DNA from: Patescibacteria group bacterium
Lineage (GTDB): Bacteria > Patescibacteriota > Minisyncoccia > Phycocordibacterales > UBA12445
NCBI GenBank assembly: GCA_003504275.1
Contig: DOAO01000007.1
Span: 75,535-139,534 of the forward strand
Length of the DNA: 64,000 nt
Reading direction: 5' to 3'
Part shown: positions 8,377 to 63,744 of the stretch, piece by piece
Numbering within the stretch: position 1 is the stretch's first letter
Layout of the letters: each line of letters begins with the position of its first letter
Translations under genes and position numbers: made by a program
The notes under the pieces: model-generated
What the model was told of the DNA's origin: nothing
What the model saw: only the letters and a program-made list of their open reading frames with translations
Database searches by the model: none

Positions 8377-8515
8377 CTTTGTCATCCGCACGAGTGTTGT
8401 CATCCCAGACTTGATCTGGGATCCACTAGCATTGGTGGTGAAACATGGATCCCAGATCAAGTCTGGGATGACAAAGGTTGTGTGTCATCCTCGCGAATGC
8501 GGGGATCCAGAAAGT
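8377..8515. repeat. nested palindromic intergenic element (MITE/REP-like) carrying GTCATCC...GGGATCCAGAAAG motifs
   Basis: Perfect 26-bp inverted repeat GTCATCCCAGACTTGATCTGGGATCC / GGATCCCAGATCAAGTCTGGGATGAC, each arm itself hairpin-forming. An outer imperfect inverted repeat (TGTCATCCGCACGAG / TCATCCTCGCGAATGCGG) flanks it. Confidence 0.6.
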
Positions 8516-8546: not shown

Positions 8547-10415
8547 ATGTGTGGAATAACCGGATTTATAGGAAAAGGGACAAAAAACGACCTGGAAAAA
8601 ATGGTCGCCTCTATAAAGCACCGTGGTCCTGATGCACAGGGGCATTTTTGGAGCGAAGGCATCGCCCTAGGGCACACAAGGCTCAGTATCATAGACCTTT
8701 CTGAGACCGGCTCTCAGCCTATGTTTGATAATAAGAAAGAGATAGGTATCGTTTTTAATGGAGAAATATATAACTTTCCGGAGCTAAGAAAAGAGCTAGA
8801 GAAAAAGGGTTATGTTTTCATGGGTACTTCCGACACAGAGGCGATAATTTATCTATATAAGGAATTTGGCGAAAAATGTTTTGAAAAGATGAATGGGATG
8901 TTCGCTGTCGCCATATATGATTTCAAAAAAAATAAGCTCGTGCTCGCCAGGGATAGAATGGGAAAGAAACCATTATATTGGGGTATTTTTCAAGAGACTT
9001 TAATTTTTGGTTCCGAACTCAAGTCATTAATTTCCCATCCTCTTTTTAAAAAAGAGATTGATTTAAATTCTGTAAATAAATATCTTCAGTATGATTATGT
9101 TCCGTCACCTCATTCTATTTTTAAAAATGTTTACAAATTAGAACCGGCAAGTTATCTTCTTTTTGAAAAAGGTAAAATAGAGAAAAATAAATTCTGGAGA
9201 GCAGACCTCACTCCTAATAAAATTACCTTCAAGGAAGCGTTAGGGGAGTTTGATAGTAATATGAATAGTAGTGTCGCCTCAAGACTTGTTTCCGATGTGC
9301 CTCTCGGTATTTTTTTGAGCGGGGGATTAGATAGTTCCGCGATAGCTTATTATGCGCAGAAGAATTCCAAAGATAAGATAAAAACTTTTTCAATCGGTTT
9401 TAAGGAGGATAGTTTTGATGAATCCAAATATGCCAGACAGGTTGCAGAGCACTTAGGTACCGAGCATTATGAGAAGATTTTAAGTGCCAAAGATTCTCTT
9501 GATTTGATACCCAAAATAGCTGATATTCTGGATGAGCCCGTTGCTGATGCTTCTATAATACCGACATACTTACTTTCTAAATTTACTAAAGAGAGGGTAA
9601 CTGTCGCACTAGGCGGTGATGGGGGTGACGAACTTTTTGCTGGATATCCGACATTCCAGGCTGATTCAATAGTTGGTCTTTATGAGAGCATCCCCGAATT
9701 TATGAGGAAGGGGATAATTGAAAAGGTAATAAAAAGTATTCCCGCATCAGACAAGAATTTTAGTCTGGGATTCAAGCTTAAAAAATTTATTAGCGGGTTG
9801 GGTGTTAATAAAAAATACTTACACCAAACATGGCTCGGCAGTTTTGGAAAAGAAGAGAGAAAAAATTTATTTAAAAATGAAGCTTGGGAAAAGTTAGTTA
9901 ATGAGAATGAGTTTGAGGATATAGATACATATATGAATGAAGTAAAAGACAGTGACCCGAGGAATAAGATTCTATATTTATATATGCGAACATATCTTAT
10001 GGACCAGGTACTTGTGAAGGTTGACAGGGCTAGTATGGCGAACGCCATGGAGGTCAGAGCACCATTCCTAGATACAAGTATTGTCGAATTCGCCAACTCT
10101 CTGCCTTACATATATAAATATAAGAATTTTCAGACCAAATATATACTTAAGAAGCTTATGGAAGGTAAACTTCCGCAGAATATTATACATAGAAGCAAGA
10201 AAGGTTTCGGTATTCCACTCGGCAAATGGCTCAAAGAGGACTTGAGGGGATTTTGTGATAAAACATTGTCTAAGGATAATTGTGATAAATTCGGCTTGTT
10301 TAATTATGAATTTATTAATAAACTTAAAAACGAGCACTTTTCTGGAGTTAAGGACAATAGGAAGTTGCTCTGGAATTTAATAGTATTATTCCTGTGGAGG
10401 GAAAAGTGGATTTAA
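8547..10415 (+). CDS. asnB: asparagine synthase (glutamine-hydrolysing) family amidotransferase
   Basis: N-terminal MCGITG (Ntn Cys2), SGGLDSS PP-loop, and ~620 aa length. Confidence 0.8.
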   Translation: MCGITGFIGKGTKNDLEKMVASIKHRGPDAQGHFWSEGIALGHTRLSIIDLSETGSQPMFDNKKEIGIVFNGEIYNFPELRKELEKKGYVFMGTSDTEAIIYLYKEFGEKCFEKMNGMFAVAIYDFKKNKLVLARDRMGKKPLYWGIFQETLIFGSELKSLISHPLFKKEIDLNSVNKYLQYDYVPSPHSIFKNVYKLEPASYLLFEKGKIEKNKFWRADLTPNKITFKEALGEFDSNMNSSVASRLVSDVPLGIFLSGGLDSSAIAYYAQKNSKDKIKTFSIGFKEDSFDESKYARQVAEHLGTEHYEKILSAKDSLDLIPKIADILDEPVADASIIPTYLLSKFTKERVTVALGGDGGDELFAGYPTFQADSIVGLYESIPEFMRKGIIEKVIKSIPASDKNFSLGFKLKKFISGLGVNKKYLHQTWLGSFGKEERKNLFKNEAWEKLVNENEFEDIDTYMNEVKDSDPRNKILYLYMRTYLMDQVLVKVDRASMANAMEVRAPFLDTSIVEFANSLPYIYKYKNFQTKYILKKLMEGKLPQNIIHRSKKGFGIPLGKWLKEDLRGFCDKTLSKDNCDKFGLFNYEFINKLKNEHFSGVKDNRKLLWNLIVLFLWREKWI

Positions 10416-10426
10416 TTTTTTAAAAA

Positions 10427-11194
10427 ATGTCATCAAGCGAACGATTCGGATACGAGTGGGATACTTATTCATTTATGGATGAGAATTATGAAAAACAGTT
10501 CTTAAACTGGACTAGTCCTCTACCTAAAAGTTTTTTCAAAGATAAGTTTATTCTAGACGCTGGATGTGGAATGGGAAGGAATAGCTACTGGCCACTTAAA
10601 TGGGGAGCAAAAGAGGTTGTTTCATTTGATCTTGATGAGCGCTCTGTAAACAGGGCGAAAGAAACCTTGAGGGAGTTTAAGAATTCGGAAGTTTTTCTAA
10701 AAAGTATTTATGAAATAGATTGGAAAGATAAGTTTGATGTGGCTTTTAGTATTGGAGTAATACATCACTTGAAAGATCCTAAAAAAGCCCTCCAAAATAT
10801 TGTGAATGCTTTAAAGAAAGATGGCACCTTGCTTATATGGGTATATAGTTTTGAGGGTAATGAATGGATACCAAGGTATATTGATCCAATAAGAAAAAAT
10901 ATTACATCAAAGCTTCCTGTGGGATTGGTTCATTTTTTGAGTTATTTTTGCTCGGTACCGTTATGGACTTTTGTTAAGATTTTTAGAGGACCAACGGGAT
11001 ATTTAAAACAACTCTCAACTTTTGATTTTTGGCATATTCACAGTATTGTTTTTGATCAGCTTATACCAGATGTTGCAAATTATTGGTCAAAGAAAGATAT
11101 TGAAAAATTATTTTCTGGATTAAATATAAAAGATGTTTCTATTAAGATGCCTCCTAATGGGAGCGGTTGGACAATAATAGGATACAAAAAATAA
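10427..11194 (+). CDS. class I SAM-dependent methyltransferase
   Basis: ILDAGCGMGRNSY motif I and VAFSIGVIHHLKDP. Confidence 0.55.
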   Translation: MSSSERFGYEWDTYSFMDENYEKQFLNWTSPLPKSFFKDKFILDAGCGMGRNSYWPLKWGAKEVVSFDLDERSVNRAKETLREFKNSEVFLKSIYEIDWKDKFDVAFSIGVIHHLKDPKKALQNIVNALKKDGTLLIWVYSFEGNEWIPRYIDPIRKNITSKLPVGLVHFLSYFCSVPLWTFVKIFRGPTGYLKQLSTFDFWHIHSIVFDQLIPDVANYWSKKDIEKLFSGLNIKDVSIKMPPNGSGWTIIGYKK

Positions 11195-11198
11195 TTTT

Positions 11199-11777
11199 AT
11201 GACAAAGGAAATTAAAAAATTAAATCTTGGTGCCGGTGAATTTAAAAAGGATGGATATGTAAATGTTGATTGGCAAGATCTTACAAAACCGGATGTAAAG
11301 CACGATCTCAATGTATTACCATATCCATTTGAAAACAATACTTTTGATTTGATTGAGGCTTTTCATGTTCTGGAACACTTAGATAAACCGTTTAGCATCA
11401 TGTCGGAGCTTCATAGGATTTTGAAACCGGGGGCTATTTTGATAATAAAGGTACCTCATTTTAGTAGGGGGTTCACACACGCTGAACATTCACATGGTTT
11501 TGATGTTACTTTCCCGCTATATTTCAATAGGAATTTCACAAAATCTGGTTATTTTGGGACTGATTTTAAATTAAAAAAATTGAAGCTTAGGTGGTCGGCT
11601 TTTATACACCTCATGCCTTCTATGGGTTACGGGAAGATAAGTCTAACATTGGTTAAAATTGTTGATTTTATTTTCTCGTTTCTGGCTAATCTTAGTCCGA
11701 ATTTTTGCAGTAGAATGTGGTGTTTTTGGGTTGGTGGTTTTGAGGAAATAGAATTTGAATTCATAGCACAAAAATAA
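11199..11777 (+). CDS. class I SAM-dependent methyltransferase (Methyltransf_11-like)
   Basis: LNLGAGEFKKDGYVNVD...FHVLEHLDKP...LKPGAILII. Confidence 0.5.
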   Translation: MTKEIKKLNLGAGEFKKDGYVNVDWQDLTKPDVKHDLNVLPYPFENNTFDLIEAFHVLEHLDKPFSIMSELHRILKPGAILIIKVPHFSRGFTHAEHSHGFDVTFPLYFNRNFTKSGYFGTDFKLKKLKLRWSAFIHLMPSMGYGKISLTLVKIVDFIFSFLANLSPNFCSRMWCFWVGGFEEIEFEFIAQK

Positions 11778-11778
11778 A

Positions 11779-12468
11779 ATGTCTATATTTAGGGAATATT
11801 TTAAAAAATGGCCTATTTTTTACTATTTTGTCGGTACTGTTTTTGGCCCTGTTCTACTTGCGGGGTTAAACCCGCGAGGTTTTTTGAAAAAATATAAAAT
11901 AGACGGAAAGGTTCTTAATATTGGTTCTGGTCCAAGAAGAATTGCCTCCGGGGTTATAAATATGGACATAGAAAAATATGAGGGAGTAGATATTGTTGGT
12001 GATGCAACAAATATGCCTTTTGACGATAATACTATTTCTGCTGTGATTTGTGATAACGTCTTAGAACATGTAAAAGATCCACAGAAGGTGGCAGGGGAGA
12101 TAAATAGGGTTTTAAATGTTGGCGGTGTTGCATATATAAGTACTCCTTTTATTTACCCATTCCACTCTTCCCCATACGACTTCACTAGATGGACCAAACA
12201 GGGATTGGAAAAATTATTTAGTGATTTTGATATCGTGGAAATTGGCTCAAGGTCGGGACCGTTTTCTTCGCTAGTGGTTTGCCTATGTTATCTTTTTGCC
12301 ACGATATTTTCTTTTGGAAATAGTACTATTTATTGGTTTTTGGTAGATCTTTTTATGTTTGTCTTCTTTCCTATAAAATTTTTAGATGTAATCTTTAATT
12401 TTTGGCCCAACTCAATAAATATGGCCGCAGTATTGTATGTAGTTGTCAGAAAAAAAGATGGTCAATAA
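11779..12468 (+). CDS. class I SAM-dependent methyltransferase
   Basis: LNIGSGPRRI...ICDNVLEHVKDP...LNVGGVAYI. Confidence 0.5.
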   Translation: MSIFREYFKKWPIFYYFVGTVFGPVLLAGLNPRGFLKKYKIDGKVLNIGSGPRRIASGVINMDIEKYEGVDIVGDATNMPFDDNTISAVICDNVLEHVKDPQKVAGEINRVLNVGGVAYISTPFIYPFHSSPYDFTRWTKQGLEKLFSDFDIVEIGSRSGPFSSLVVCLCYLFATIFSFGNSTIYWFLVDLFMFVFFPIKFLDVIFNFWPNSINMAAVLYVVVRKKDGQ

Positions 12469-14254
12469 ATATTGGGCAAATCTTAAATTTTTTGTTTCTG
12501 AGCACTTAATAGCTATCTTTTTTGCTTTACTTGTCGGAACTTTGTGCTCACTTCCACAGTTTTTAGCTATCTGGTCTCTGGGGGAACAATATAAAGGAAT
12601 TCCTTTTTTGTATAGTGACTCAGAGTTTGTTTATTTGGCTAGAATACAAGAGATATTTGATGGACATTTGTCCGCAAGTTCACATGTTTTTTATGAATAT
12701 AAGGATTCAGTTTCAATAACACCCCCTTCTGGTGAATATTTTTATTTTTTAGGAAGTAAACTATTGGGAATAAGTATTATCGGATTTGTTTATTTGAGTA
12801 AGCTAATTTTTCCCGCCATTCTTTTTCTTCTCATATATTTTCTTGTTTTACTTCTAACAAAGAAAATAGAAAGTGAGTGTGGTCTCGGTCAAAAATTAAC
12901 GGCTATTCTAGCCGGATTAACCTCCACTATAGGGTATGAATTTTTTAATTATCGCACCCTGATACCACTATTGTCGGGTAATACTCAAAATTTAAATTTA
13001 AATATATGGACAAGGCTTATTAATCCCATAACTGGTGCTATTTTATTATTTTTATTCTTTATATTTTTATTAAAAATAATAGAAGGTAAAAGGAAATTGA
13101 TAATACCAGCGGGAATATTACTTTTTTTGATGATTGGCTACATATTCTCCTTCGGAATTTCGCTATTAACTTGTTTGATATTGAGTATTATTTTTGCAGT
13201 AAAAAAGGAATACCGGATATTTAAAGATCTTCTCTCGGTAATTTTATTTTCCACCATCATCTTTGCTGTTTATATTTTTATATCATTAATGACCAACCCC
13301 TATCCGACAGATTCTCTGAGGATGGGATTGTTTTTGACCCATACTGTTTTGTTAAACAAGCTATTGCTTTTAGTCATTTCTTTTTTTGCTGTTTCGTCTC
13401 TTTATTTTGTTAAAAATAAGACCTTTTTTAAAGATGAGAGAAATAATTGGTGGCTATTTCTTTTGTCTGTTGTTTTGGCCTGTTTTATTTCCTACACACA
13501 GCAGGTTGTGACAGGTATGACTGTTTGGCCACAACACCTCGTCCAATATACAATACCGATTTCTATTATAACTGTTTTAGTTTTATTATTTAACTTTTTC
13601 TCTAATAATTGGAGAAAAATATATATCCCTTTTTTAATAATATTAATTTTTTCAAATGTTTTTATGAGTTTAATGAGTCTATTAACATATAAAAATATTT
13701 TAATTGATTTTATTGACGTTCAAAAATATGGAGAAGCTGTTAATTGGATTAAGTTAAATGCCGAAAAGGACTGTGTTATTTTGTCGTCAGATAATAGAAT
13801 GAATCGGATAATACCGGCACTAACCAGATGTAATGTTTATTTATCCGATTGGGTTTTTTCCGGTGTTCCTATGGACAGAGTAAGGCATAATTATTTTTTG
13901 TATCTTAGACTAAAGGGGATTACCCCAGACACCATAGACAGCTATCTTTCTGAAAATAAAGAAGAGGTCTCCAATCTTTTTTTTAGAGACTGGAAAGATT
14001 TGTTTATGGACAATAATGATCCGTGGCTTAATAAAATAAGTAATAAAAAAGAAATAGAAAATTGGAAGGAAGAATTGAATTTAGATTTGGCGTCCGATTT
14101 CAAAAAATTTATGAATAATGACCTTTTAGAACAAATAAAAAAATATAGAATTGACCATGTTATAATAAACGGCGCCGATATTGGCAAATATAAAGAATTA
14201 AAATTGAATTTAATAGAAGAAACAGGTGATTTTAAAATCTATAAATTAAATTAA
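12458..14254 (+). CDS. polytopic membrane protein, putative GT-C-type glycosyltransferase
   Basis: About 12 predicted TM helices followed by a soluble C-terminal domain. Sits in a GtrA/GT2 neighbourhood. Start set at the internal ATG (MVNKYW); the ORF-track start at 12443 overlaps the upstream gene further. Confidence 0.35.
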   Translation: MVNKYWANLKFFVSEHLIAIFFALLVGTLCSLPQFLAIWSLGEQYKGIPFLYSDSEFVYLARIQEIFDGHLSASSHVFYEYKDSVSITPPSGEYFYFLGSKLLGISIIGFVYLSKLIFPAILFLLIYFLVLLLTKKIESECGLGQKLTAILAGLTSTIGYEFFNYRTLIPLLSGNTQNLNLNIWTRLINPITGAILLFLFFIFLLKIIEGKRKLIIPAGILLFLMIGYIFSFGISLLTCLILSIIFAVKKEYRIFKDLLSVILFSTIIFAVYIFISLMTNPYPTDSLRMGLFLTHTVLLNKLLLLVISFFAVSSLYFVKNKTFFKDERNNWWLFLLSVVLACFISYTQQVVTGMTVWPQHLVQYTIPISIITVLVLLFNFFSNNWRKIYIPFLIILIFSNVFMSLMSLLTYKNILIDFIDVQKYGEAVNWIKLNAEKDCVILSSDNRMNRIIPALTRCNVYLSDWVFSGVPMDRVRHNYFLYLRLKGITPDTIDSYLSENKEEVSNLFFRDWKDLFMDNNDPWLNKISNKKEIENWKEELNLDLASDFKKFMNNDLLEQIKKYRIDHVIINGADIGKYKELKLNLIEETGDFKIYKLN

Positions 14255-27606: not shown

Positions 27607-27864
27607 ATGTACTGCTATGTCTATGTTTTGAGGTCTGATAAGGATGGTAAAATGTATACTGGTTATACAAATAATTTAAAATTTAGATTTGATAGTCACA
27701 ATAAGGGTCTAGTGTTCTCAACAAAAAACAGAAAACCTTTTAAATTGATATATTTTGAGGGGTGCTTAAATCAACAAGATGCGACTAGGCGTGAAAAATA
27801 TTTGAAGACTATTTATGGAAAGAGGTTTATTAAAAGCAGGATCAAATCTTATTTAATAGGGTAA
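27607..27864 (+). CDS. GIY-YIG nuclease domain protein
   Basis: CYVYVLRSDKDGKMYTGYTNNLKFRFDSHN carries the GIY...YTG core. 85 aa. Confidence 0.55.
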   Translation: MYCYVYVLRSDKDGKMYTGYTNNLKFRFDSHNKGLVFSTKNRKPFKLIYFEGCLNQQDATRREKYLKTIYGKRFIKSRIKSYLIG

Positions 27865-27927
27865 ATGAAAAATAAATACAAGATAGGGGTGGCGGGGGTT
27901 GGGATGGTGGGTGTTCAGGTGAGATAA
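27865..27927 (+). pseudogene. duplicated 5' fragment (20 codons) of the downstream UDP-glucose dehydrogenase-like gene
   Basis: MKNKYKIGVAGVGMVGVQVR* matches the start of the 28959 gene (KKGQYKIGVAGVGMVGVQAERW). A 37-nt stretch is identical (27883-27919 = 28992-29028). Confidence 0.6.
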
Positions 27928-27952
27928 ACGGAAAGATGGTAAGATTAAAAAA

Positions 27953-28966
27953 ATGAAAAAGGAAAATAAAAATATTGATGAAAAATTAGATAGAGGAGAG
28001 ATAGCAATTTATCAAAATAAGGACAAGGGTGTTATCGTGGAGGCTAATCTTAAGGAGGATACTATTTGGCTTACACAAGCTCAAATAACAGACATTTTCG
28101 GAGTAGACAGAAGCGTCATAACTAAGCATATTCGTAATATATTTAAAGACGGGGAGCTAGAAGAAAAAAGCAATGTGCAAAAAATGCACATTGCTAATTC
28201 TGATAAATTGGTTAATTTTTATAACTTAGACATGATTCTCTCTGTTGGTTATAGGGTTAATTCTAAACAGGCAACACAGTTTAGGGTTTGGGCGACAAAG
28301 ACTCTCAAGGAACATATCATTAAGGGATACACGTTAAACAGTAAAAGATTGGAGGAGTTGAAGGGAAAGCAGTTAAACGAATTTGAACAAGCGATTGGCC
28401 TAATAAAAAAAACCATAGACACAAAGATTCTTTCTGGAGGAGAAGAGAGTGGTCTTTTGAAGGTCATTACCGAATACGCTAATTCCTGGTTACTCTTACA
28501 GAGATATGATGAAGATGGACTGACTCTACCAAGGAAGGTAAAAAAGCCTACTTTTTCTCTTAAATATGATTTTGCGCAATTGGCTATTTTTGATTTGAAG
28601 AGAGATTTAATGAAGAAGGGAAACGCAAGTGAGCTTTTTGGTACCGAAAGGTCAAGTCTTCAGGGTATAATAGGAAATATCTACCAAACTTTTGGTGGTT
28701 CTGAATTGTATTCAAGTATAGAAGAGAAAGCGGCTCATCTTCTTTACTTTGTTATCAAGGACCATCCTTTTGCTGACGGAAATAAACGTATAGGCTCTTT
28801 TTTGTTTATTGTTTTTCTTGCACAGAATAAACATCTTTTTAGAAAGAATGGGGATAAAAAAATAAATGACAACGCTCTTGTTGCGGTTGCTTTGCTTGTA
28901 GCCGAAAGTGAGCCTTCACACAAAGATACTTTAATAAAATTGATAACAAATTTAATTAGTGATTAA
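27953..28966 (+). CDS. RhuM-family (virulence RhuM) / Fic-DOC fusion protein
   Basis: N-terminal RhuM-like region (IWLTQAQITDIFGVDRSVITKHIRNIF...SVGYRVNSKQATQFRVWATKTL). C-terminal Fic motif HPFADGNKRIGS (HxFx[DE]GNKR). Confidence 0.65.
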   Translation: MKKENKNIDEKLDRGEIAIYQNKDKGVIVEANLKEDTIWLTQAQITDIFGVDRSVITKHIRNIFKDGELEEKSNVQKMHIANSDKLVNFYNLDMILSVGYRVNSKQATQFRVWATKTLKEHIIKGYTLNSKRLEELKGKQLNEFEQAIGLIKKTIDTKILSGGEESGLLKVITEYANSWLLLQRYDEDGLTLPRKVKKPTFSLKYDFAQLAIFDLKRDLMKKGNASELFGTERSSLQGIIGNIYQTFGGSELYSSIEEKAAHLLYFVIKDHPFADGNKRIGSFLFIVFLAQNKHLFRKNGDKKINDNALVAVALLVAESEPSHKDTLIKLITNLISD

Positions 28967-29895: not shown

Positions 29896-29989
29896 ATTGT
29901 CATTCCCGCAGATAGAAAATTTAGAAAGAGGCTCAACCTCCTAAAAAAGAGGTTGAGCCTCTAATTTTCTATCTGCGGGAATGACGATG
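29896..29989. repeat. nested palindromic MITE/REP-like element (outer inverted repeat GTCATTCCCGCAGATAGAAAATT, inner 13-bp-stem hairpin GAGGCTCAACCTC...GAGGTTGAGCCTC)
   Basis: Perfect 23-bp outer inverted repeats at 29899-29921 and 29964-29986 enclose a conserved inner hairpin. The same inner hairpin recurs at ~32925-32960. Confidence 0.65.
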
Positions 29990-30111: not shown

Positions 30112-32304
30112 ATGAGTAATATAAGCACAGAAAAGCTTCTTAAAAACGCAATTATCGGCGGATTATTTTTAATTCCTTTTTTGCCTTTCATTGTGTCCGG
30201 TTCATTGTTCTTTCCGTTTATAACAGGGAAGAATTTTGCATTTCGTATAATTATAGAAATAGTTTTTGCTCTTTGGCTTGCTCTTATTATTTTTGATAGA
30301 AATTATTTACCAAAGAAGAGTGATATTATTATCTCAGTTCTTTCTTTTGTTGGAATAATTGCACTAGCTGATTTTTTGGGAGTAAATTCATTCAAGAGCT
30401 TCTGGTCAAATTACGAAAGAATGGAGGGACTGGTTTCCTTGTTACACGTTCTGGCATATTTCATTCTTCTTGTTTCTGTTTTTAATGAAAAAATTTGGAA
30501 ATATTTTTTTAATACGATACTTGTTTCCGGAATAGGCCTCTACGCAGTAGGGACTCTTCAGCTTATGGGAAAGGTGGCGATACATCAGAGTGGTACCAGA
30601 TTAGATGCTACTTTTGGAAACTCGTCATACTTTGCTGTTTATATGCTTTTTCTAGCATTCTTGGGCGCTCTATTTTTCTTTAGAAATAAGATTGAAAATA
30701 ATTTTTATTCTTGGTTTTATGGTTTTGTTTCCCTCTTCGCTGTATTTATGTTGGCGCAGACAGCTACTAGAGGTACTGCTATCGGCCTTGTAATGGGTGT
30801 TATTGTTTCATCTGCTATTCTCGTGTGGCAGGGAGATGAGACGCAAAAAAAGATAGCTAAATATATTATTGGTGGAATAGCGGGGGTTATTCTTCTTTTC
30901 TTTTTTGTTAAAGAAATTCCTGCAATAAAAAGTCACCCTATCTTAGGGCGATTTGCTGAACTCTCTGTTACAAGCATAATGAACCAACCTAGATATATGG
31001 TTTGGAATATGGCATATCAGGGTTTTAAGGAAAGACCTATTCTTGGATGGGGTCAGGAGAATTTTAATGTTGTTTTCAACAAAAATTATGAGCCGAAAAT
31101 GTATTCTCAAGAACCTTGGTTTGATAGGGCGCATAATGTTTTCTTCGATTGGTTGATTGCGGGTGGGATTTTAGGATTGTTGTCTTATCTCTCTATATTT
31201 TTCTTTTCAATTCGTGCTATTTGGAATAACAAGAAGACAAAAAAACTGTCTCTCCTGGATAGATCTATTCTCACAGGTCTTCTTACTGGATACTTTATTC
31301 ATAATTTTTTCGTTTTCGATAATCTTTTGAGCTACGTGATGTTCTTTGCGGTTATTGCATATATATGTCACGAATCAGGTGGAATAGCTGTAAAGAGCAA
31401 GGAGAAACCAGTATCCCTTATTAAAGATGAGCTTTGGGTTTATGTAGCGGTTTCAGTCATTATTGTGTCTGTTTCAATGTGTTTGTATTTTGTAAACATT
31501 AAACCGATAATGGCCTCTAGGACTTTAATCAAGGCTCTATCCTCAAGGACCATTAATGAAACTTCTGATTATTTCAAAAAAGCTATTTCATACAACACAT
31601 TTGGCACCACAGAATCAAGGGAGCAATTAGTACAAAGATCAATGTCTATTTCTAGGTCCAGCGAAATAGATGCAACAACAAAACAATCTTTCTTTTTACT
31701 TGCGAGAGAAGAGATGAATAAGCAGATAGAGCTTTTCCCGTCAGATGCAAGGTATAGAGTTTTTCAGGGGGCATTATATTCAACCTATGGATTTCTTGAT
31801 GACGCCATAAGGGAGTTTGTGTCTGCTAACGAGCTCTCTCCCAGAAAACAAAATATTATGTTTGAGCTAGTTTCTGCTCTATTGAATAAGGGAGATTATG
31901 CTAACGCGCTTGTTATTGCGGAAAAAACTTTCAGATTAGAAGAAACTTATATTGATGCCAGGAAAATTTATGCGGTAACCCTTATTTATAATAAGGAGTT
32001 TAATAAGGCAGAAGAATTACTCGCTGAAGTTTATGGAGAAGGGGTGATTGTTGTAGATGACCGTATAATAAATGCCTATGCTGCAACAAAACAATACAAG
32101 AAGATAATTGAGATATGGAAAAAGAGAATTGAGTCAGAACCAACAAATGCTCAGTATCATGTATATCTGTCTGCTAGTTATTTGGCTGATGGTCAGAGAA
32201 CTAATTCAATCTCTGAACTTAGAAAAGCAGTGGAGCTCAATCCTCCATTTGCGCCTCAGGCTGAAATATATATAAAGGAAATAAAGGCCGGTAGGAATCC
32301 TTAA
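30112..32304 (+). CDS. O-antigen ligase (Wzy_C)-like polytopic membrane protein with C-terminal TPR repeats
   Basis: Multi-TM N-terminal region with a loop (ATRGTAIGLVMGVI) typical of O-antigen ligase-like proteins. C-terminal ~250 aa are TPR-like. Confidence 0.55.
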   Translation: MSNISTEKLLKNAIIGGLFLIPFLPFIVSGSLFFPFITGKNFAFRIIIEIVFALWLALIIFDRNYLPKKSDIIISVLSFVGIIALADFLGVNSFKSFWSNYERMEGLVSLLHVLAYFILLVSVFNEKIWKYFFNTILVSGIGLYAVGTLQLMGKVAIHQSGTRLDATFGNSSYFAVYMLFLAFLGALFFFRNKIENNFYSWFYGFVSLFAVFMLAQTATRGTAIGLVMGVIVSSAILVWQGDETQKKIAKYIIGGIAGVILLFFFVKEIPAIKSHPILGRFAELSVTSIMNQPRYMVWNMAYQGFKERPILGWGQENFNVVFNKNYEPKMYSQEPWFDRAHNVFFDWLIAGGILGLLSYLSIFFFSIRAIWNNKKTKKLSLLDRSILTGLLTGYFIHNFFVFDNLLSYVMFFAVIAYICHESGGIAVKSKEKPVSLIKDELWVYVAVSVIIVSVSMCLYFVNIKPIMASRTLIKALSSRTINETSDYFKKAISYNTFGTTESREQLVQRSMSISRSSEIDATTKQSFFLLAREEMNKQIELFPSDARYRVFQGALYSTYGFLDDAIREFVSANELSPRKQNIMFELVSALLNKGDYANALVIAEKTFRLEETYIDARKIYAVTLIYNKEFNKAEELLAEVYGEGVIVVDDRIINAYAATKQYKKIIEIWKKRIESEPTNAQYHVYLSASYLADGQRTNSISELRKAVELNPPFAPQAEIYIKEIKAGRNP

Positions 32305-32404
32305 AAAATATTTGCTGTAAATAAGCTGTTTTGGTAATATATAGGAGTGAGCGTTGTTCAATAATAATTATTTTATTTGAACTGCACTTCATTAAGCAAG
32401 TACA

Positions 32405-32441
32405 AGCGCAAAACCCCCGAAAGGGGGTTTTGCGTTTTTTT
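32405..32441 (+). terminator. rho-independent terminator
   Basis: GCAAAACCCCC-GAAA-GGGGGTTTTGC followed by T8. Confidence 0.7.
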
Positions 32442-32769
32442 TGTGGAATTGATAAAATTATAGGTAGATCTTTTGTTTAGTTAAGGTTGGCGGAACGCTC
32501 ACATCTTTTGTACTTGTGGAGTTTGTTTCCGCCAACTTTAAGTAGATGAAAACTTGTCCGCCAAAATTTTTATATAATAAATAAAATTGTGCGGTAATAT
32601 TTTAAATAGGTATTAATTTATTTTATCGTTGAAATTGATTGTATAAAAATTTAGGAGGATGAATTTTAAAAAAAAACGAGAGCAATCTCGTTTTTTTCTT
32701 GCCCCGTTAGAAGTTCTCCATTCGGATTAATGCGATTCCCGTCAGAATGACAGTCTCGTCGGGTCAGCA

Positions 32770-32995
32770 TCCACTCGCCACCGTCTTTGCGAGACCGAAG
32801 GTCGTGGCAATCCAGAAAGTATTATGAACAATCTGGATTGCTTCAAGCTTCGCTTTCGCAAAGACGATAAGAAATATTTTTTGTAAATTATTTTTCGCTG
32901 TCTTTGCGAGATTTAAAAATTTTAGAAGCTCAACCTCCTAAAAAAGAGGTTGAGCTTCTTTTTAAAAAATTTTTAAATCTCGAAATGACGACAAG
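32770..32995. repeat. two adjacent nested palindromic elements of the same family as 29896-29989 and 8377-8515
   Basis: Inverted repeat GTCTTTGCGA...TCGCAAAGAC enclosing GCAATCCAGA...TCTGGATTGC. Then inverted repeat CGAGATTTAAAAATTTT enclosing the AGCTCAACCTCCTAAAAAAGAGGTTGAGCT hairpin. Confidence 0.55.
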
Positions 32996-33162
32996 AAATA
33001 TTTTTTATTTTATTTTTTTAAAGTTATCCACATATTTTTTATTTTTTTTATTACAAAAAATTTTTTTATGTGAGATAATTAAATTATTAGAGCAACATCA
33101 TCACAAGAATTTTTATTTAAAAAGGTCGGATGTTGTCTCCAAGCAAAAAAAAGAAAAATAAA

Positions 33163-33249
33163 ATGGCAGCAAAAAAGAAAGCAAAGAAAGTAGTAAAGAA
33201 AGCAGTAAAGAAAGTTGCAAAGAAGAAAGTTGCAAAGAAGAAGAAATAG
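33163..33249 (+). CDS. candidate small ORF encoding a 28-aa Lys/Ala/Val-rich basic peptide (MAAKKKAKKVVKKAVKKVAKKKVAKKKK)
   Basis: ATG-initiated ORF immediately followed by a strong terminator. Below the 60-aa ORF-track cutoff. No clear SD, so tentative. Confidence 0.3.
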   Translation: MAAKKKAKKVVKKAVKKVAKKKVAKKKK

Positions 33250-33258
33250 TTTTTAACA

Positions 33259-33295
33259 AAAAGAAAACCCTCCTAATCGGAGGGTTTTCTTTTTG
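33259..33295 (+). terminator. rho-independent terminator
   Basis: AAAACCCTCC-TAATC-GGAGGGTTTT followed by CTTTTTG. Confidence 0.65.
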
Positions 33296-33405
33296 TTTAA
33301 TTTCACAATTTGCAAATTATATTCCGGCCTAGATTTTTTCTGTTATTTTGCTCTCAAATGAGCTAGTATAATTAAATAGCTTTTATTTATCCTAAACACT
33401 AAATC

Positions 33406-37479: not shown

Positions 37480-37941
37480 ATGGCTACGATACATAGATTT
37501 GAGGATTTGATTTGTTGGAAGAAAGCTCGTGAGCTTACGAAGGAGATATATAAAGCTTTTAAGGATAGTAAAGATCGTGGGCTGAAGGACCAGATTGAAC
37601 GTGCGGCGGTTTCTGTAATGAGCAATATTGCAGAGGGTTTTGAAAGAGGCACTAAACAAGAGTTTCTGAATTATCTTTTTATCGCAAAAGGTTCGGCAGG
37701 AGAAGTAAGATCACAGCTTTATATAGCACTTGATGTTGGTTATTTAAATATTGAAACATTTAAATATTTAAATTCTCTGGCAACGGAAAATTCACGTCTC
37801 ATCCAGAGTTTTACCGAGAAGGTAAGGGGTGGTTCACGTGCGGGAACGCAATTTAAGAAACTAGACAAAAAGGACCCTTTAGAAGAAATTATAAAAGAGA
37901 AGTCCCCAGAGCTTTACGAAAAATTTTACGGAAAAAATTAA
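37480..37941 (+). CDS. four-helix-bundle protein (23S rRNA intervening-sequence-type protein family)
   Basis: MATIHRFEDLICWKKARELTKEIY...SNIAEGFERGTKQEFLNYLFIAKGSAGEVRSQLYIA fits this family. Confidence 0.55.
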   Translation: MATIHRFEDLICWKKARELTKEIYKAFKDSKDRGLKDQIERAAVSVMSNIAEGFERGTKQEFLNYLFIAKGSAGEVRSQLYIALDVGYLNIETFKYLNSLATENSRLIQSFTEKVRGGSRAGTQFKKLDKKDPLEEIIKEKSPELYEKFYGKN

Positions 37942-56838: not shown

Positions 56839-56857
56839 CCCGTCATTCACAAATAAA

Positions 56858-56890
56858 ATACCGGTATAAACGCCGGTATTTTTGTTTTTG
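56858..56890 (+). terminator. rho-independent terminator
   Basis: ATACCGG-TATAAACG-CCGGTAT followed by TTTTGTTTTTG. Confidence 0.65.
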
Positions 56891-56919
56891 TTGACAAAAA
56901 ACAGTTATGGGTATATATT
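56891..56919 (+). promoter_or_regulatory. sigma70-like promoter for the DUF5320 gene
   Basis: TTGACA, exactly 17-nt spacer, TATATT, about 40 nt upstream of the ATG at 56959. Confidence 0.55.
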
Positions 56920-56958
56920 CATAATAATAGTCGTATTTATTATTTAATTTTTAAAAAA

Positions 56959-57153
56959 ATGCCAAGATTAGATGGAACAGGCCCAATGGGCCAGGGGCGT
57001 GGTATGGGTCGTGGGCAGGGGGGGGTTGGGAGAGGACGTCGGGGTTTTTCTCAGAACCAAGTTAGAAAACTTGATGGAACAGGCCCAATGGGTCAGGGAC
57101 CAAGAACTGGCAGAGGGTTGGGAAATTGTCCCGCTTCTGATAAAAGGGTTTAG
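56959..57153 (+). CDS. DUF5320-family small Gly-rich protein
   Basis: MPRLDGTGPMGQGRGMGRGQGG...LDGTGPMGQGPRTGRGLGNCPAS with an internal repeat and a C-terminal Cys. Confidence 0.55.
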   Translation: MPRLDGTGPMGQGRGMGRGQGGVGRGRRGFSQNQVRKLDGTGPMGQGPRTGRGLGNCPASDKRV

Positions 57154-57259
57154 GTTTTTAAAAACCTAATTATTACGTTATTGTTGTCAAAATTAAGAAT
57201 ATATTGTAAAAGTTATTTTCTTTGTATTTTTTATTTGCGTTATTTATTTTTATTTTTTA

Positions 57260-57385
57260 TAATAACATTGAGGTTGATGGTTTGACAGGTTGTGTCGTGA
57301 GGCATAACCACTCGGTTGCAACAGACCGATAGAACCGTTTTACCTTGTCGAGAAGTTCCGGGTCAAACCGGGGCTTTTTGATTTG
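57260..57385 (+). promoter_or_regulatory. structured 5' leader with intrinsic terminator/attenuator upstream of the P-type ATPase (candidate riboswitch)
   Basis: GC-richer structured stretch inside an AT-rich intergenic region. Ends in hairpin AAGTTCCGG-GTCAAA-CCGGGGCTT plus TTTGATTTG, about 45 nt before the start codon. Confidence 0.4.
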
Positions 57386-57428
57386 TGGTTAATTTTGGAA
57401 AATTTGAAAATATTAGTAGAATTGTCTT

Positions 57429-62460: not shown

Positions 62461-63261
62461 ATGCACCAACAACTTGTAGATTTTATAGAAGAATATCTTC
62501 GAAAAGGCTCGACAAAAGAAGAGATTCACTCGGCTCTTTTAAGGGTGGGTGGATGGACACAGAAAGAAGTAGATGATGTTTTTTTAATTGTCGAAAGAAA
62601 TAATTCATCCTTACCCCAAGATGTTCCAGTTAAGCCAATACCTACAATACCAGCCGTCTCTTCAAATATTGATATCAAACCGACAGTACCAACAAATTCT
62701 CCCGTGACACCACAGAAGCCAATTATTCCGCCATATTCTAGGCCTGTTATAAACAAGCCACCAATGATTGGATTTCAGACATCTTCTCCCTCCTCTGCGC
62801 CTAAGCCACAATTGGAATTTAAGACAACTCCCGCGTTACCACCAAGGCCTTTAATGGATATCAAGGAGCCCTCTTCGCAATTCAAGCCAGTCAAGCCACA
62901 AATGCAGATTTACCCCATGCCAACTCAATCTCCTGTGTCTGCGAATAATACACTTCGGATTGTCTTAATAACTATTTCTATTTTTTCCTTATTCATTGCT
63001 GGAGGAGTGTTTGTATATTTTTACTACTTTGCTCCTGTGATAAATGAAAAAATACCGGTTCAAAATATTGCTACAACAACTGAAACCGAGAGGAATGTTA
63101 TTTTGCCTCCAGACAATGCCGTTCCAGAAGGGGCTGATTTACTTATTCTGCCCCCGGAGATTATTCAGGATATAAAAAACGATGTTTCTTCTACAACGTT
63201 AGAAGTGCCCATAGTTCCTCCTACGCAGTCTTCGTCTTCAGTCCCTTTTGTTAACGATTAA
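62461..63261 (+). CDS. hypothetical Pro-rich membrane-anchored protein
   Basis: N-terminal soluble domain, Pro/Thr-rich low-complexity linker, single TM helix. Confidence 0.35.
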   Translation: MHQQLVDFIEEYLRKGSTKEEIHSALLRVGGWTQKEVDDVFLIVERNNSSLPQDVPVKPIPTIPAVSSNIDIKPTVPTNSPVTPQKPIIPPYSRPVINKPPMIGFQTSSPSSAPKPQLEFKTTPALPPRPLMDIKEPSSQFKPVKPQMQIYPMPTQSPVSANNTLRIVLITISIFSLFIAGGVFVYFYYFAPVINEKIPVQNIATTTETERNVILPPDNAVPEGADLLILPPEIIQDIKNDVSSTTLEVPIVPPTQSSSSVPFVND

Positions 63262-63479
63262 TAACGTTTATAAAAAAAGACTAAGAAAAATATCTCTTAG
63301 TCTTTTTTATTGCCCAAAAATCAAAAAGACCTAGATAAATCTAGGACTCTTTGATGAGGTAAGATGGTTCTATCGATCTGTTGCAAACGAGTGGCTTATA
63401 CCTTGCGATAAAACCTATCAAACCATCAACCTCATTTACAAGTATAAAAAAAAGATAAAAATGGGTCAAGGATCCACCT

Positions 63480-63675
63480 GTGGATAACTTTTGCACCCTC
63501 GTCACCGTCATTGCGAGACGAGGCGCATTGCCCAGTAGTGAGCTCTGCTCTACTACCTTGGGTCCTAGCCGAGTCGTGGCAATCCCCGTCGACCAATCCA
63601 GGAATCCATTCCCGTTTCCGTCATTGCGAAGGCTTTAGCCTGTGGCAATCCAGACTGAGTTTTTTATGATATTAT
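63480..63675. repeat. cluster of GTCATTGCGAG / GTGGCAATCCAGA palindromic repeat motifs (same family as 8377, 29896, 32770)
   Basis: GTCATTGCGAGACGAGG...GTCGTGGCAATCC...CCGTCATTGCGAAGGCTTTAGCCTGTGGCAATCCAGACTGAG followed by a T-run. Confidence 0.5.
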
Positions 63676-63744
63676 AATTGTGCGTAGGGTTTTTCATTTT
63701 AAATAACTCCTACCAACTAATATTTACTTTATATTTTTTATTTT

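Follow-up and report, generated by a model that had tools for sequence, protein, structure and literature searches.

What does a bacterium with a streamlined genome keep in a gap of more than a thousand nucleotides between two genes? The question is posed by positions 32305-33405 of a 64,000-nt stretch of DNA from a Patescibacteria group bacterium (assembly GCA_003504275.1, contig DOAO01000007.1), which was analysed as a whole and is called the window below; all positions refer to it unless a related locus is named. The window is 90% coding, and its 54 gaps between open reading frames (ORFs) have a median length of 31.5 nt. With 1101 nt this gap is the longest of them, and the second-longest carries three tRNA genes. 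A preliminary description of the sequence had called the 1101-nt gap very long for a streamlined genome, and the features noted there were all found at or close to the positions given. By Pfam the region, hereafter the island, is flanked by a gene with Wzy_C and TPR domains (30112-32304) and by secA (from 33406). We consider it probable that the island is a cluster of three small unannotated transcription units which are older than this genome, namely two RNAs that would act as a riboregulator pair (RNA B and RNA A) and a microprotein gene, and that it was enlarged by repeat insertions of about 300 nt. The observations behind this reading are conservation, covariation, synteny and complementarity among related loci. 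All units described below are on the plus strand.

About 170 related loci were compared in all, in three sets: eighty SecA loci, one per species; three closer relatives with the order Wzy-island-secA, found via the Wzy protein (L084, L085 and L086); and eighty loci kept of 112 metagenome stretches that match the core of RNA A. The closest SecA proteins among the species representatives are those of Vogelbacteria and Taylorbacteria metagenome-assembled genomes (MAGs; 65-68%), and UT05_C0002G0053 of 'Parcubacteria group bacterium GW2011_GWF2_38_76' has the same sequence as the Wzy-type protein of the window (30112-32304). Nucleotide identity to L084-L086 amounts to 94-95% for hairpin 1 of RNA A and 87-89% for RNA B, compared with 75-78% for secA and 69-72% for the Wzy gene, and at least two of the island units appear to be under stronger purifying selection than secA. 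The terminator scan yielded four terminator-like sites in the island versus 1.0 ± 1.1 in shuffles, and the fold z-scores of its structures lie between -5 and -8; together with the length of the gap this shows that the pattern exceeds chance. Rfam 15 gave only four tRNA matches in the window at the gathering threshold, none of them inside the island, and at E ≤ 10 the island gave only far-sub-threshold matches of the hairpin type (miRNA and leader models); the cmsearch check that had been proposed earlier hence assigned the island to no Rfam family, and likewise no real match was obtained for the relatives L014 and L002. Signal recognition particle (SRP) RNA, 6S RNA, transfer-messenger RNA (tmRNA) and RNase P RNA were rejected as identities of RNA A or RNA B, as none gave an Rfam match and their consensus lengths and motifs do not suit either RNA.

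Two predicted small RNAs and their complementary sites

RNA B (32347-32445) is a predicted small RNA (sRNA) of about 95-100 nt with the 5' end GUGAGCG. Its putative promoter (32312-32340) begins 8 nt past the stop codon of the Wzy_C gene and reads as a -35 box TTGCTG (32312-32317), a 17-nt spacer and an extended -10 box TGgTAATAT (32332-32340); a simple promoter scan of the island made no call here. The layout TTGCnn-17-TAnTnT at 6-7 nt ahead of GTGAGCG (6 nt in the window) is common to L084, L085 and L086, and distant loci have TTGACT-17-TATACT 6-9 nt ahead of GTGAG. From the 5' end onwards RNA B would comprise a first seed, GUGAGCGUU, at its extreme end (32347-32355), a hairpin P1 with the stem GUUCAA/UUGAAC (32356-32382), a second seed, GCAAGUACAAGC (32396-32407), exposed in the inter-hairpin stretch CAAGUACAA, and a rho-independent terminator with its stem at 32404-32437 and a U-run to 32445. 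The terminator was called by the scan and has 15 pairs (8 of them G-C); it corresponds to the strong terminator placed earlier at 32405-32441, ends RNA B and may double as the terminator of the Wzy gene. In the four-way comparison with L084-L086 the block from the Wzy stop codon to this terminator is 87-89% conserved, P1 carries a compensatory change in L085 (GUCCAA/UUGGAC), and the fold has a z-score of -6.7. Counterparts with the same architecture were found upstream of RNA A in L002, L005, L009, L010, L011, L046, L059, L062, L070 and L074, and in at least 14 loci a consensus-like promoter before GUGAG and a terminator after it precede RNA A. As in trans-acting sRNAs, RNA B is delimited by a promoter and a rho-independent terminator of its own, both recognised as sequence signals. 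The partner seems to be common rather than universal.

RNA A (32465-32700) is a predicted transcript of about 235 nt, for which an extended -10 box TGaTAAAAT (32450-32458) would set a start near 32465. TGnTAAAAT or TGnTAGAAT is found at the same place in L084, L085 and L086, and other lineages have TGnTACAAT, TATAAT or TATACT 7-10 nt ahead of the RNA A hairpin. Hairpin 1 (32468-32555) contains the 13/13 inverted repeat noticed before, in which 32484-32496 pairs with 32527-32539; the repeat extends to 25-nt arms (32471-32495 and 32527-32551) and forms the core of RNA A. Its apical module, CGCUCACA...UGUGGAG, holds site 1, AACGCUCAC (32494-32502), on the apical 5' strand and site 2, UUUUGUACUUGU (32506-32517), in the apical loop UUGUACUUG. 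Hairpin 2 is built from arms at 32549-32582 and 32634-32667, in which CCGCC pairs with GGAGG, and is followed by a terminator hairpin with a U-run (32670-32697), the A/T-flanked structure that had been described as a second terminator-like hairpin near 32678-32705. The arms of hairpin 2 account both for a 'third half-site' and for the GGAGG (32654-32658) that directly abuts an ATG (32659). The 23-codon ORF starting there (32659-32730) had been called doubtful and was rejected as a gene: the spacing between GGAGG and ATG is zero, the frame crosses the terminator, and it is not conserved in L084-L086. L086 keeps hairpin 2 and a homologous terminator, with the arms CCCACC/GGCGGG (CCGCC/GGAGG in the window) and the mismatch at the same position, as read by eye. 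On the same contig region (L086/L087, 6705-7161) RNA B, RNA A, hairpin 2 and the terminator are kept, and a DnaA box and the microprotein unit are missing between the Wzy gene and secA.

The structure of RNA A recurs far beyond these close relatives. Nomurabacteria-like relatives carry an element of about 90 nt upstream of the microprotein unit, which is more than 90% conserved between species and folds into one long interrupted hairpin (z = -7.6), and compensatory change was observed at 12 of 33 pairs when the Nomurabacteria-like set was taken together with L011. The window RNA A and this element have the same architecture and the same apical letters, CGC(A)CUCAC...UGU(U)GGAG-UUUG, on wholly different basal stems. 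All thirteen lineages tested, with unrelated stem sequences, have the RNA A fold (z = -5.4 to -8.4), and the apical module (G/A)YA-CUC-AC...UUG-GAG is near-invariant across the members. RNA A thus keeps its structure through compensatory change, as judged from pair counts and folds. Within the window the predicted fold is much more stable on the plus than on the minus strand (-34.6 versus -20.1 kcal/mol). A covariance model (R1), built from the Nomurabacteria-like RNA A with the window sequence left out, found its best window match at 32468-32555 (29.5 bits, E = 3.4e-5), and the same model and a descriptor of core plus fold added L002, L005, L009, L010, L011, L046, L059, L062, L070 and L074 as members. 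Partial tandem duplicates of the apical region were seen beside the full copy in L009 (8200-8260, GAGCACAACGACGTAGTTTGGAGTCAACC) and in L070 (about 2860-2900, GGACGCGTACTCACCAGCGG).

The two RNAs are complementary at two places. In the window, seed 1 of RNA B is the exact complement of site 1 of RNA A (helix 1), and seed 2 complements site 2 in the variable apical loop (helix 2); within the 64 kb RNA A is the only place with perfect sites for both seeds. In other lineages exact helix-1 complements of 9-12 nt sit about 150-300 nt upstream of the RNA A site, and their flanks change together with that site, as in L002 (CGUGAGUGC), L062 (UAGUGAGUGC), L070 (GAGUGAGUA), L074 (UAGUGAGUA), L059 (GUGUGAGUG) and L085 (AAUGUGAGCGUU). 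The complementarity was re-tested on 31 dereplicated AT-rich metagenome loci, in 12 of which a helix-1 complement of at least 8 nt was present upstream and in none of which it was present downstream (p = 2e-4). For helix 2 the cognate duplexes between loop and upstream sequence have a mean of -11.7 kcal/mol as against -7.3 ± 2.1 for non-cognate ones, the cognate partner ranked first in 10 of 13 loci, and 7 of the 31 metagenome loci reached p ≤ 0.05. Seed complementarity is therefore kept by covariation, more strongly for helix 1 and more weakly for helix 2. The helices follow each other in parallel order and are not left over from a simple inverted duplication. As strands resembling GUGAG and CUCAC occur in the hairpins of both RNAs, a four-strand exchange between them is conceivable.

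Regarding the genes that follow, RNA A was found 6-96 nt ahead of murB in six genome loci, ahead of hpf in L062 and 17 nt ahead of secA in L059. Among the metagenome loci the first downstream ORF (of at least 60 aa) encodes MurB in 15 cases, HPF in 11, SecA in 10 and uL3 in 4. In 11 of the 15 MurB loci the murB start lies 20-43 nt past UUGGAGGUCACC and thus at the foot of the hairpin. Neither murB nor hpf is present in the 64-kb window. On this basis RNA B and RNA A are read as a riboregulator and its target, and the present arrangements suggest RNA B, RNA A, murB, microprotein, hpf, secA as the ancestral order. The gene upstream, assigned by eye from its N-terminus, was MurB-like in 7 and Ddl-like in 4 of 22 loci; comFC, as judged by eye, was not found among these 22. 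The ribosomal protein uL3 was likewise recognised by eye from its N-terminus (MAFILGKKLKMSQIWKDD...) downstream of an RNA A-type hairpin in L088, L094, L113 and L137. Upstream of the Nomurabacteria-like loci there is a 16S rRNA gene; L007 and L014 have it complete, and in L006 and L018 the contig edge cuts it, so that a truncated 3' end is left. In L006, L014 and L018 we noted tRNA genes shortly before RNA A, in L014 at the place of RNA B in other lineages.

Taken at the level of a model, RNA B would dock on the loop of RNA A via seed 2, and its 5' end would then invade the apical CUCAC/GGAG stem. Invasion would free the invariant UUGGAG strand and could remodel or destabilise the RNA A hairpin. 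Where RNA A abuts murB, hpf or secA, pairing may change the accessibility of the start region or the fate of the transcript, and in the relatives the two RNAs would serve as riboregulator and cis target for a cluster of cell-wall, ribosome-hibernation and secretion genes. In the genome studied here RNA A is uncoupled from murB and has a terminator of its own; it may be a free partner or a decoy of RNA B, the two titrating each other.

The predicted microprotein unit

The third unit occupies 33022-33300. It opens with a DnaA box, the 11-mer AGTTATCCACA (33022-33032) with the perfect box TTATCCACA at 33024-33032, located 41 nt upstream of the -10 element of a putative promoter (33050-33079; ATTACA, 18 nt, TGaGATAAT) that was listed by the promoter scan. 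A leader hairpin follows (33090-33139), with the arms GAGCAACAUC (33090-33099) and GAUGUUGUCUC (33129-33139) and a 24-nt loop that ends in GGUCG (33124-33128). The ORF MAAKKKAKKVVKKAVKKVAKKKVAKKKK (33163-33249) would encode a peptide of 28 aa, or comprise 39 codons if counted from an upstream in-frame ATG at 33130, and behind it there is a predicted rho-independent terminator (33252-33300) with the core AAAACCCUCC uaauc GGAGGGUUUU. Its 22-nt arms (33252-33273 and 33279-33300) are 95% complementary, and the automatic terminator scan made no call for it. The preliminary description had mentioned a small basic ORF with its terminator here while treating the whole island as noncoding; that label is probably wrong for 33163-33249, where the ORF is a conserved, probably coding gene.

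Conservation of this unit was noted at every level. When the island was compared with the SecA loci by BLAST, only the lysine-rich ORF matched, in about 20 loci. ORFs of the family MAAKKKAKK...KKRA* (15-52 aa) occupy the same slot in at least 26 loci, and the layout of box, promoter, GGUCG hairpin, ORF and terminator recurs in 26. In closer lineages the ORF lies 70-260 nt upstream of secA, and in distant ones (L031-L049) an hpf/raiA-like gene stands between the two. A terminator follows the ORF in every relative examined, and L011 has the unit turned round as one block. As expected for a protein-coding small ORF, the frame is conserved and the codons show three-base periodicity, with A/G at position 1, A/C at position 2 and T found nearly exclusively at position 3; exchanges of CGA/CGC and GCA/GCT are synonymous and preserve the ending RA-stop. 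No gene was called at 33163-33249 on L081. The minimum gene length of Prodigal is 90 nt, and an ORF of 87 nt below this limit would explain the missing annotation. In L085 the gene caller annotated a version of 37 aa from the upstream in-frame ATG. Seven peptides of the family had no exact counterpart in a collection of 15 billion proteins, five variants searched against Pfam and NCBIfam as well as a PDB sequence search gave no match at E ≤ 10, and a homology search with the 52-aa member of L011 gave no significant match. An ORF of 85 aa with a TTG start (32904-33161) was discarded as a gene; it has no Pfam match, is A/T-rich and spans repeat, promoter and leader.

The box at 33024-33032 is one of only two perfect DnaA boxes in the 64 kb. 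The 11-mer was found in 23 of 83 loci; near the microprotein gene the box is on the strand of the ORF, including the inverted unit of L011, and the spacing between box and GATAAT is 40-41 nt in 17 loci. A consensus box thus occupies a fixed promoter-proximal position, as would suit a DnaA-regulated promoter, although the site is a putative one. The -10 element TGnGnGATAAT is conserved among the relatives. In every leader examined GGUCG (once AGUCG) stands 0-5 nt before the 3' arm, with stem letters that differ by lineage. Thirteen distinct leader stems are 97.4% paired as against 43.5% in shuffles and have a covariation score of 1.42 versus 0.26 (0/500 shuffles), and as the arms were chosen for pairing the score is the informative figure. 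A descriptor for the stem plus GGTCG has a background of about 0.07 matches/kb and is informative only in context. In L085 (8530-8730) we observed an insertion of about 190 nt in the leader loop, with the stem GAGGGGCAUC/GAUGUGCCUC and GGUCG kept. The product may be a tiny polycationic nucleic-acid binder associated with the ribosome or the nucleoid, the synthesis of which DnaA would tune through the box; a factor recognising the GGUCG hairpin could act on the leader, possibly the peptide itself, in an autogenous manner like that of ribosomal-protein leaders.

If up to one mismatch is allowed, the window has 30 DnaA boxes (19 ± 4 expected), which do not cluster at the island. The other perfect box, AAGTTATCCACAGG, is located on the minus strand (63479-63487) in a 483-nt gap (63262-63744) after the ORF 62461-63261 and adjoins two direct GTCATTGCGAG...GTGGCAATCC repeat units at 63507-63655. 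Over the final 4 kb of the window the GC skew declines to roughly 0. An origin of replication at the island was considered and rejected, since there is one perfect DnaA box and the GC skew is positive and steady on both sides.

Palindromic repeats and the flanks of the island

The block between RNA A and the microprotein unit (32703-33004; inverted repeats I1 and I2) is lineage-specific and has no assigned strand. Its GC content is 51-54% at 32700-32850, as against about 35% in the window overall. A GC-rich unit (32703-32830) and an inverted half (32832-32866) form a palindrome at 32782-32866 with 35-nt arms that are 83% complementary, and element B (32885-33004) is a second palindrome with 39-nt arms (82% complementary) and an inner terminator-like hairpin of 16 bp (32924-32959). 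Both palindromes had been seen before and described as two nested elements at 32770-32995; they are present but adjacent, not nested in each other, and only the second holds an inner hairpin. At the right end elements A and B have ...GACGAyAAGAAATATTTTTT in common (repeat D2), possibly as a duplicated target or as a common terminus. The family has the consensus GTCWTTGCGAG...GGCAATCC, with ends GTCWTTGCGAG...GYGGCAATCCAGA. Its window copies (8397-8474, 29896-29988, 32782-32866, 32885-33004 and 63507-63655) all lie between ORFs, and related copies occur in L052 and L084. Multiple copies, intergenic position, imperfect palindromy and presence or absence between relatives are properties of elements of the repetitive extragenic palindrome (REP) or miniature inverted-repeat transposable element (MITE) kind. 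No associated transposase or clear target-site duplication turned up, transposases not having been specifically searched for, and a full-text literature search for the motif GTCATTGCGAG gave only unrelated primer matches.

Length comparison gave islands of 974 nt in L084, 795 nt in L085 and 457 nt in L086 as against 1101 nt in the window. The stretch 32703-32830 aligns with a diverged unit in L084 and has nothing opposite it in L085; the block as a whole has no counterpart in L085 and is different in L084, and the Logan contig L082 ends inside element B. This supports the earlier suggestion that the island is a landing pad for palindromic elements. Repeats cover only about 300 of the 1101 nt, so its length is not fully due to insertions, and the remaining 800 nt or so consist of the conserved units and the secA promoter. 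In two of these units a conserved promoter and a terminator enclose a covarying structure, in line with the idea that the island may host small RNAs; both halves of the earlier guess, small RNAs and landing pad, are supported by the comparison of sequences.

Several further observations concern the repeats and the flanking genes. The copy at 29896-29988, between the UDP-glucose dehydrogenase-like gene and the Wzy gene, has the inner hairpin AGAGGCTCAACCTCC-AAAAAA-GAGGTTGAGCCTCT in common with element B, and a hairpin that resembles a terminator in both directions seems to be part of this repeat subtype. The intergenic copy at 8397-8474 is a perfect palindrome with 29-nt arms (TTGTCATCCCAGACTTGATCTGGGATCCA...) and looks like a member of the same superfamily; it scores 28 bits with the RNA A model purely because it is a long hairpin. 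In L052, a Harrisonbacteria MAG, a GTCATTGCGAG...CTCGCAATGAC unit (10502-10576) lies inside the secA region found by tblastn (10001-12547) and could be an in-frame repeat insertion into the coding gene. At the other end of the island, the secA promoter and 5' untranslated region (33340-33405) contain a -10 box TATAAT (33367-33372), and GAGCTAnTATAnT...ATAGCTTTT is conserved in L084, L085 and L086; distant relatives have a -10 box of the TGCTAATAT type about 8 nt ahead of the secA ATG. As this -10 box is downstream of the microprotein terminator, secA has a promoter of its own. Downstream of secA there is a gene for a 23S_rRNA_IVP-family protein (37480-37941). Upstream of the island a GIY-YIG gene and a RhuM/Fic-domain gene (27607-28966) stand among polysaccharide genes, and the glycan cluster may thus have received an insertion of a mobile or defence type. 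The third-longest gap of the window measures 590 nt (56839-57428).

Rival readings, known systems and meaning

Several points count against reading the island as three old transcription units with a riboregulator pair. Every transcript and peptide is a prediction, and transcription, pairing, regulatory outcome, translation, peptide function and DnaA binding are all deduced from sequence. In the Nomurabacteria-like loci no RNA B turned up within 10 kb of RNA A, RNA B is detectable upstream in only about 40% of the metagenome loci, and seed 1 is partly paired within the fold of RNA B itself. The parallel order of the two helices means that they do not form a single continuous duplex, and the overall upstream-versus-downstream test for helix 2 is borderline (p = 0.054). 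The covariance model gives a generic palindrome (8396-8476) 28.2 bits; because it scores unrelated palindromes too, the homology of the window RNA A rests on core letters, synteny and the closer relatives. The alignment of the leader stems was hand-built, with arms picked because they pair. As to the microprotein, the peptide is of low complexity, an A/G-rich stretch is open in all three frames by composition alone, there is no Shine-Dalgarno sequence ahead of the ATG, and L086 and L002 are without the unit at this position.

RNA B and RNA A might instead be parts of a single structured RNA (about 210-350 nt) that starts from the RNA B promoter and in which 32404-32441 is a structural hairpin or a read-through attenuator and the complementarities are intramolecular pseudoknots; it would act as a large leader, or an element similar to a riboswitch, for murB-hpf-secA. 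The elements are indeed adjacent on the same strand, with B preceding A in all cases, helices in parallel order would cross as those of a pseudoknot do, and in several lineages there is no terminator between RNA A and murB. However, every lineage has a strong hairpin followed by 5-8 U at the end of RNA B, RNA A has a conserved extended -10 box of its own, B and A are separated by unrelated sequence of variable length (about 100 to 300 nt), and Nomurabacteria-like loci keep RNA A with a tRNA gene at the place of RNA B; we regard a single RNA as unlikely. Far less credible is a mostly non-functional spacer that was inflated by mobile palindromes and in which the hairpins are ordinary terminators of the flanking genes and chance inverted repeats. 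About 300 nt of lineage-specific repeat material, island lengths between 457 and 1101 nt among relatives and the lack of Rfam, Pfam and NCBIfam matches would fit such a spacer, but the non-repeat blocks are more conserved than secA, they recur with covariation where SecA is only 50-60% identical, and an independent metagenome scan found them again. Just as improbable as the spacer is a role of the hairpins and the DnaA box as DNA, be it as part of a replication origin or as a DnaA-titrating or recombination site: a perfect box beside a stretch of 13-16% GC (32950-33099) and the long palindromes in the region would speak for it, yet the island has only one perfect box with positive GC skew on both sides, RNA A folds much better on the plus strand owing to G-U pairs, each unit lies between promoter and terminator signals of a single orientation, and the fixed distance of 40-41 nt from box to -10 box is what a promoter-proximal operator would show.

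The lysine-rich ORF calls for an alternative of its own, as it could lack a functional protein product and be either an RNA element or a leader peptide that stalls, on poly-lysine or at termination on the conserved KKRA-UAG, and so controls terminator read-through into secA or hpf, in the manner of SecM or an attenuator. In most loci it lies immediately upstream of secA or hpf-secA with a terminator 10-60 nt past the stop codon, the C-terminal KKRA and UAG are conserved to the nucleotide level, and arrest peptides upstream of protein-localisation genes, with RAPP-like C-termini, are reported in PMC12992588. But the sequences are made up of K, R, A, V, T, G, S and P alone and have no export signal, signal peptide, membrane segment or hydrophobic stretch; stop codon and terminator are not a constant distance apart, the window peptide ends in KKKK and not in KKRA, peptide length varies from 15 to 52 aa, and the codon-position pattern fits selection on amino acids. 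Coupling to secA of the SecM kind was rejected because of the terminator behind the ORF, the separate -10 box of secA after that, the inversion of the unit relative to secA in L011 and the position of hpf between the two in L031-L049. With a promoter and terminator of its own and a separate -10 box for secA, the microprotein unit is autonomous and not a SecM-like leader, and an ORF that makes no functional protein is in our judgement quite unlikely.

The three-unit reading invites comparison with several known systems. DsrA, RprA and ArcZ are trans-acting sRNAs that open the inhibitory 5'-leader hairpin of rpoS ('anti-antisense' activation). RNA B would resemble them in that it is short, starts from a separate promoter, exposes a single-stranded seed, ends in a rho-independent terminator and complements one strand of a leader hairpin upstream of murB, hpf or secA in the relatives. 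It differs in that its gene is in tandem just upstream of the target, that it has two seeds in parallel order, that the freed UUGGAG... strand is 20-43 nt from the murB start and thus too far for a normal Shine-Dalgarno sequence, and that the window target, RNA A, is a predicted separately terminated transcript; in a host from the candidate phyla radiation (CPR) dependence on Hfq or ProQ, neither of which was searched for, cannot be assumed. In the antisense kissing complexes of plasmid copy control (CopA-CopT, RNAI-RNAII) loop contact comes first and is followed by strand invasion of the stem, as we propose for RNA B and RNA A, which however are not opposite strands of one locus, have a complementarity of about 9 plus 9-12 nt instead of full length, and are chromosomal and conserved across a phylum-level group. 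T-box leaders recognise tRNA by two short helices in parallel order, and RNA A would meet a small trans RNA in the same way; yet there is no tRNA, T-box sequence or Rfam match, and RNA B uses its 5' end, not its 3' end. These three (DsrA-rpoS pairs, kissing antisense pairs and the two-site T-box-tRNA contact) appear to be the closest analogues, and none is a family match.

By position, the closest known system is the raiA motif RNA (RF03072), an independently transcribed structured RNA that is typically located upstream of raiA/hpf with secA as a common neighbour, and lies between comFC and raiA in Bacillota and Actinomycetota (PMC10861870). RNA A and RNA B occupy an equivalent hpf/secA neighbourhood, but the upstream genes are murB or ddl, a Wzy-type gene in the window's group and others elsewhere, RNA A is a simple long hairpin with a partner sRNA, and RF03072 had no match in the window at E ≤ 10. 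Concerning the microprotein, very small basic ribosomal proteins with autoregulated leaders exist in bL36, bS22, Thx and eukaryotic eL41. A peptide of 15-52 aa that consists almost only of K, R and A, with a structured conserved 5' leader and an adjacent hibernation factor gene, is similar to these; unlike them it has no sequence similarity and no Pfam, NCBIfam or PDB match, its ribosome association is putative, and a promoter with a DnaA box would be unusual for ribosomal-protein genes. With SecM and other arrest peptides encoded upstream of sec genes, mentioned in PMC12992588, it shares the small ORF directly upstream of secA and a conserved C-terminal R-A before the stop; the export signal is lacking, ORF and secA have their own terminator and promoter, respectively, and the unit can be inverted or separated by hpf. 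The palindromic elements, finally, are comparable to REP, bacterial interspersed mosaic elements (BIME) and MITE-like repeats such as Correia, RUP and ERIC: they have 80-120 nt, are imperfect palindromes in multiple copies, strictly intergenic and variably present, and one subtype has a terminator-like hairpin. Their consensus, GTCWTTGCGAG...GYGGCAATCCAGA, is a different one. We regard the content of the island as undescribed families of known kinds in an unusual arrangement.

CPR bacteria have tiny genomes with few recognisable regulators, and their ribosomes lack several standard proteins. Our limited full-text literature search found no description of sRNA regulation in CPR bacteria, and a literature search on ribosome microproteins brought up nothing pertinent. 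In its widest form, which we put forward tentatively and with considerable doubt, the finding would comprise an undescribed riboregulatory pair widespread in Paceibacteria, in which an sRNA with its seed at the 5' end would use two covarying helices to remodel the leader hairpin of an ancestral cluster of murB, microprotein, hpf and secA, and a new DnaA-controlled microprotein of ribosome or nucleoid, together linking replication status, cell-wall synthesis, ribosome hibernation and secretion. The three conserved units are invisible to standard annotation, the ORF being below the usual gene-caller minimum and the RNAs having no Rfam family. The RNA pair offers a testable RNA-RNA interaction with natural compensatory variants, and its association points to control of murB, hpf and secA; the microprotein, with its DnaA-box promoter and GGUCG leader, is a candidate for a ribosomal or nucleoid component that is missing so far. 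Where a streamlined genome has long gaps, it is worth looking there for such genes.

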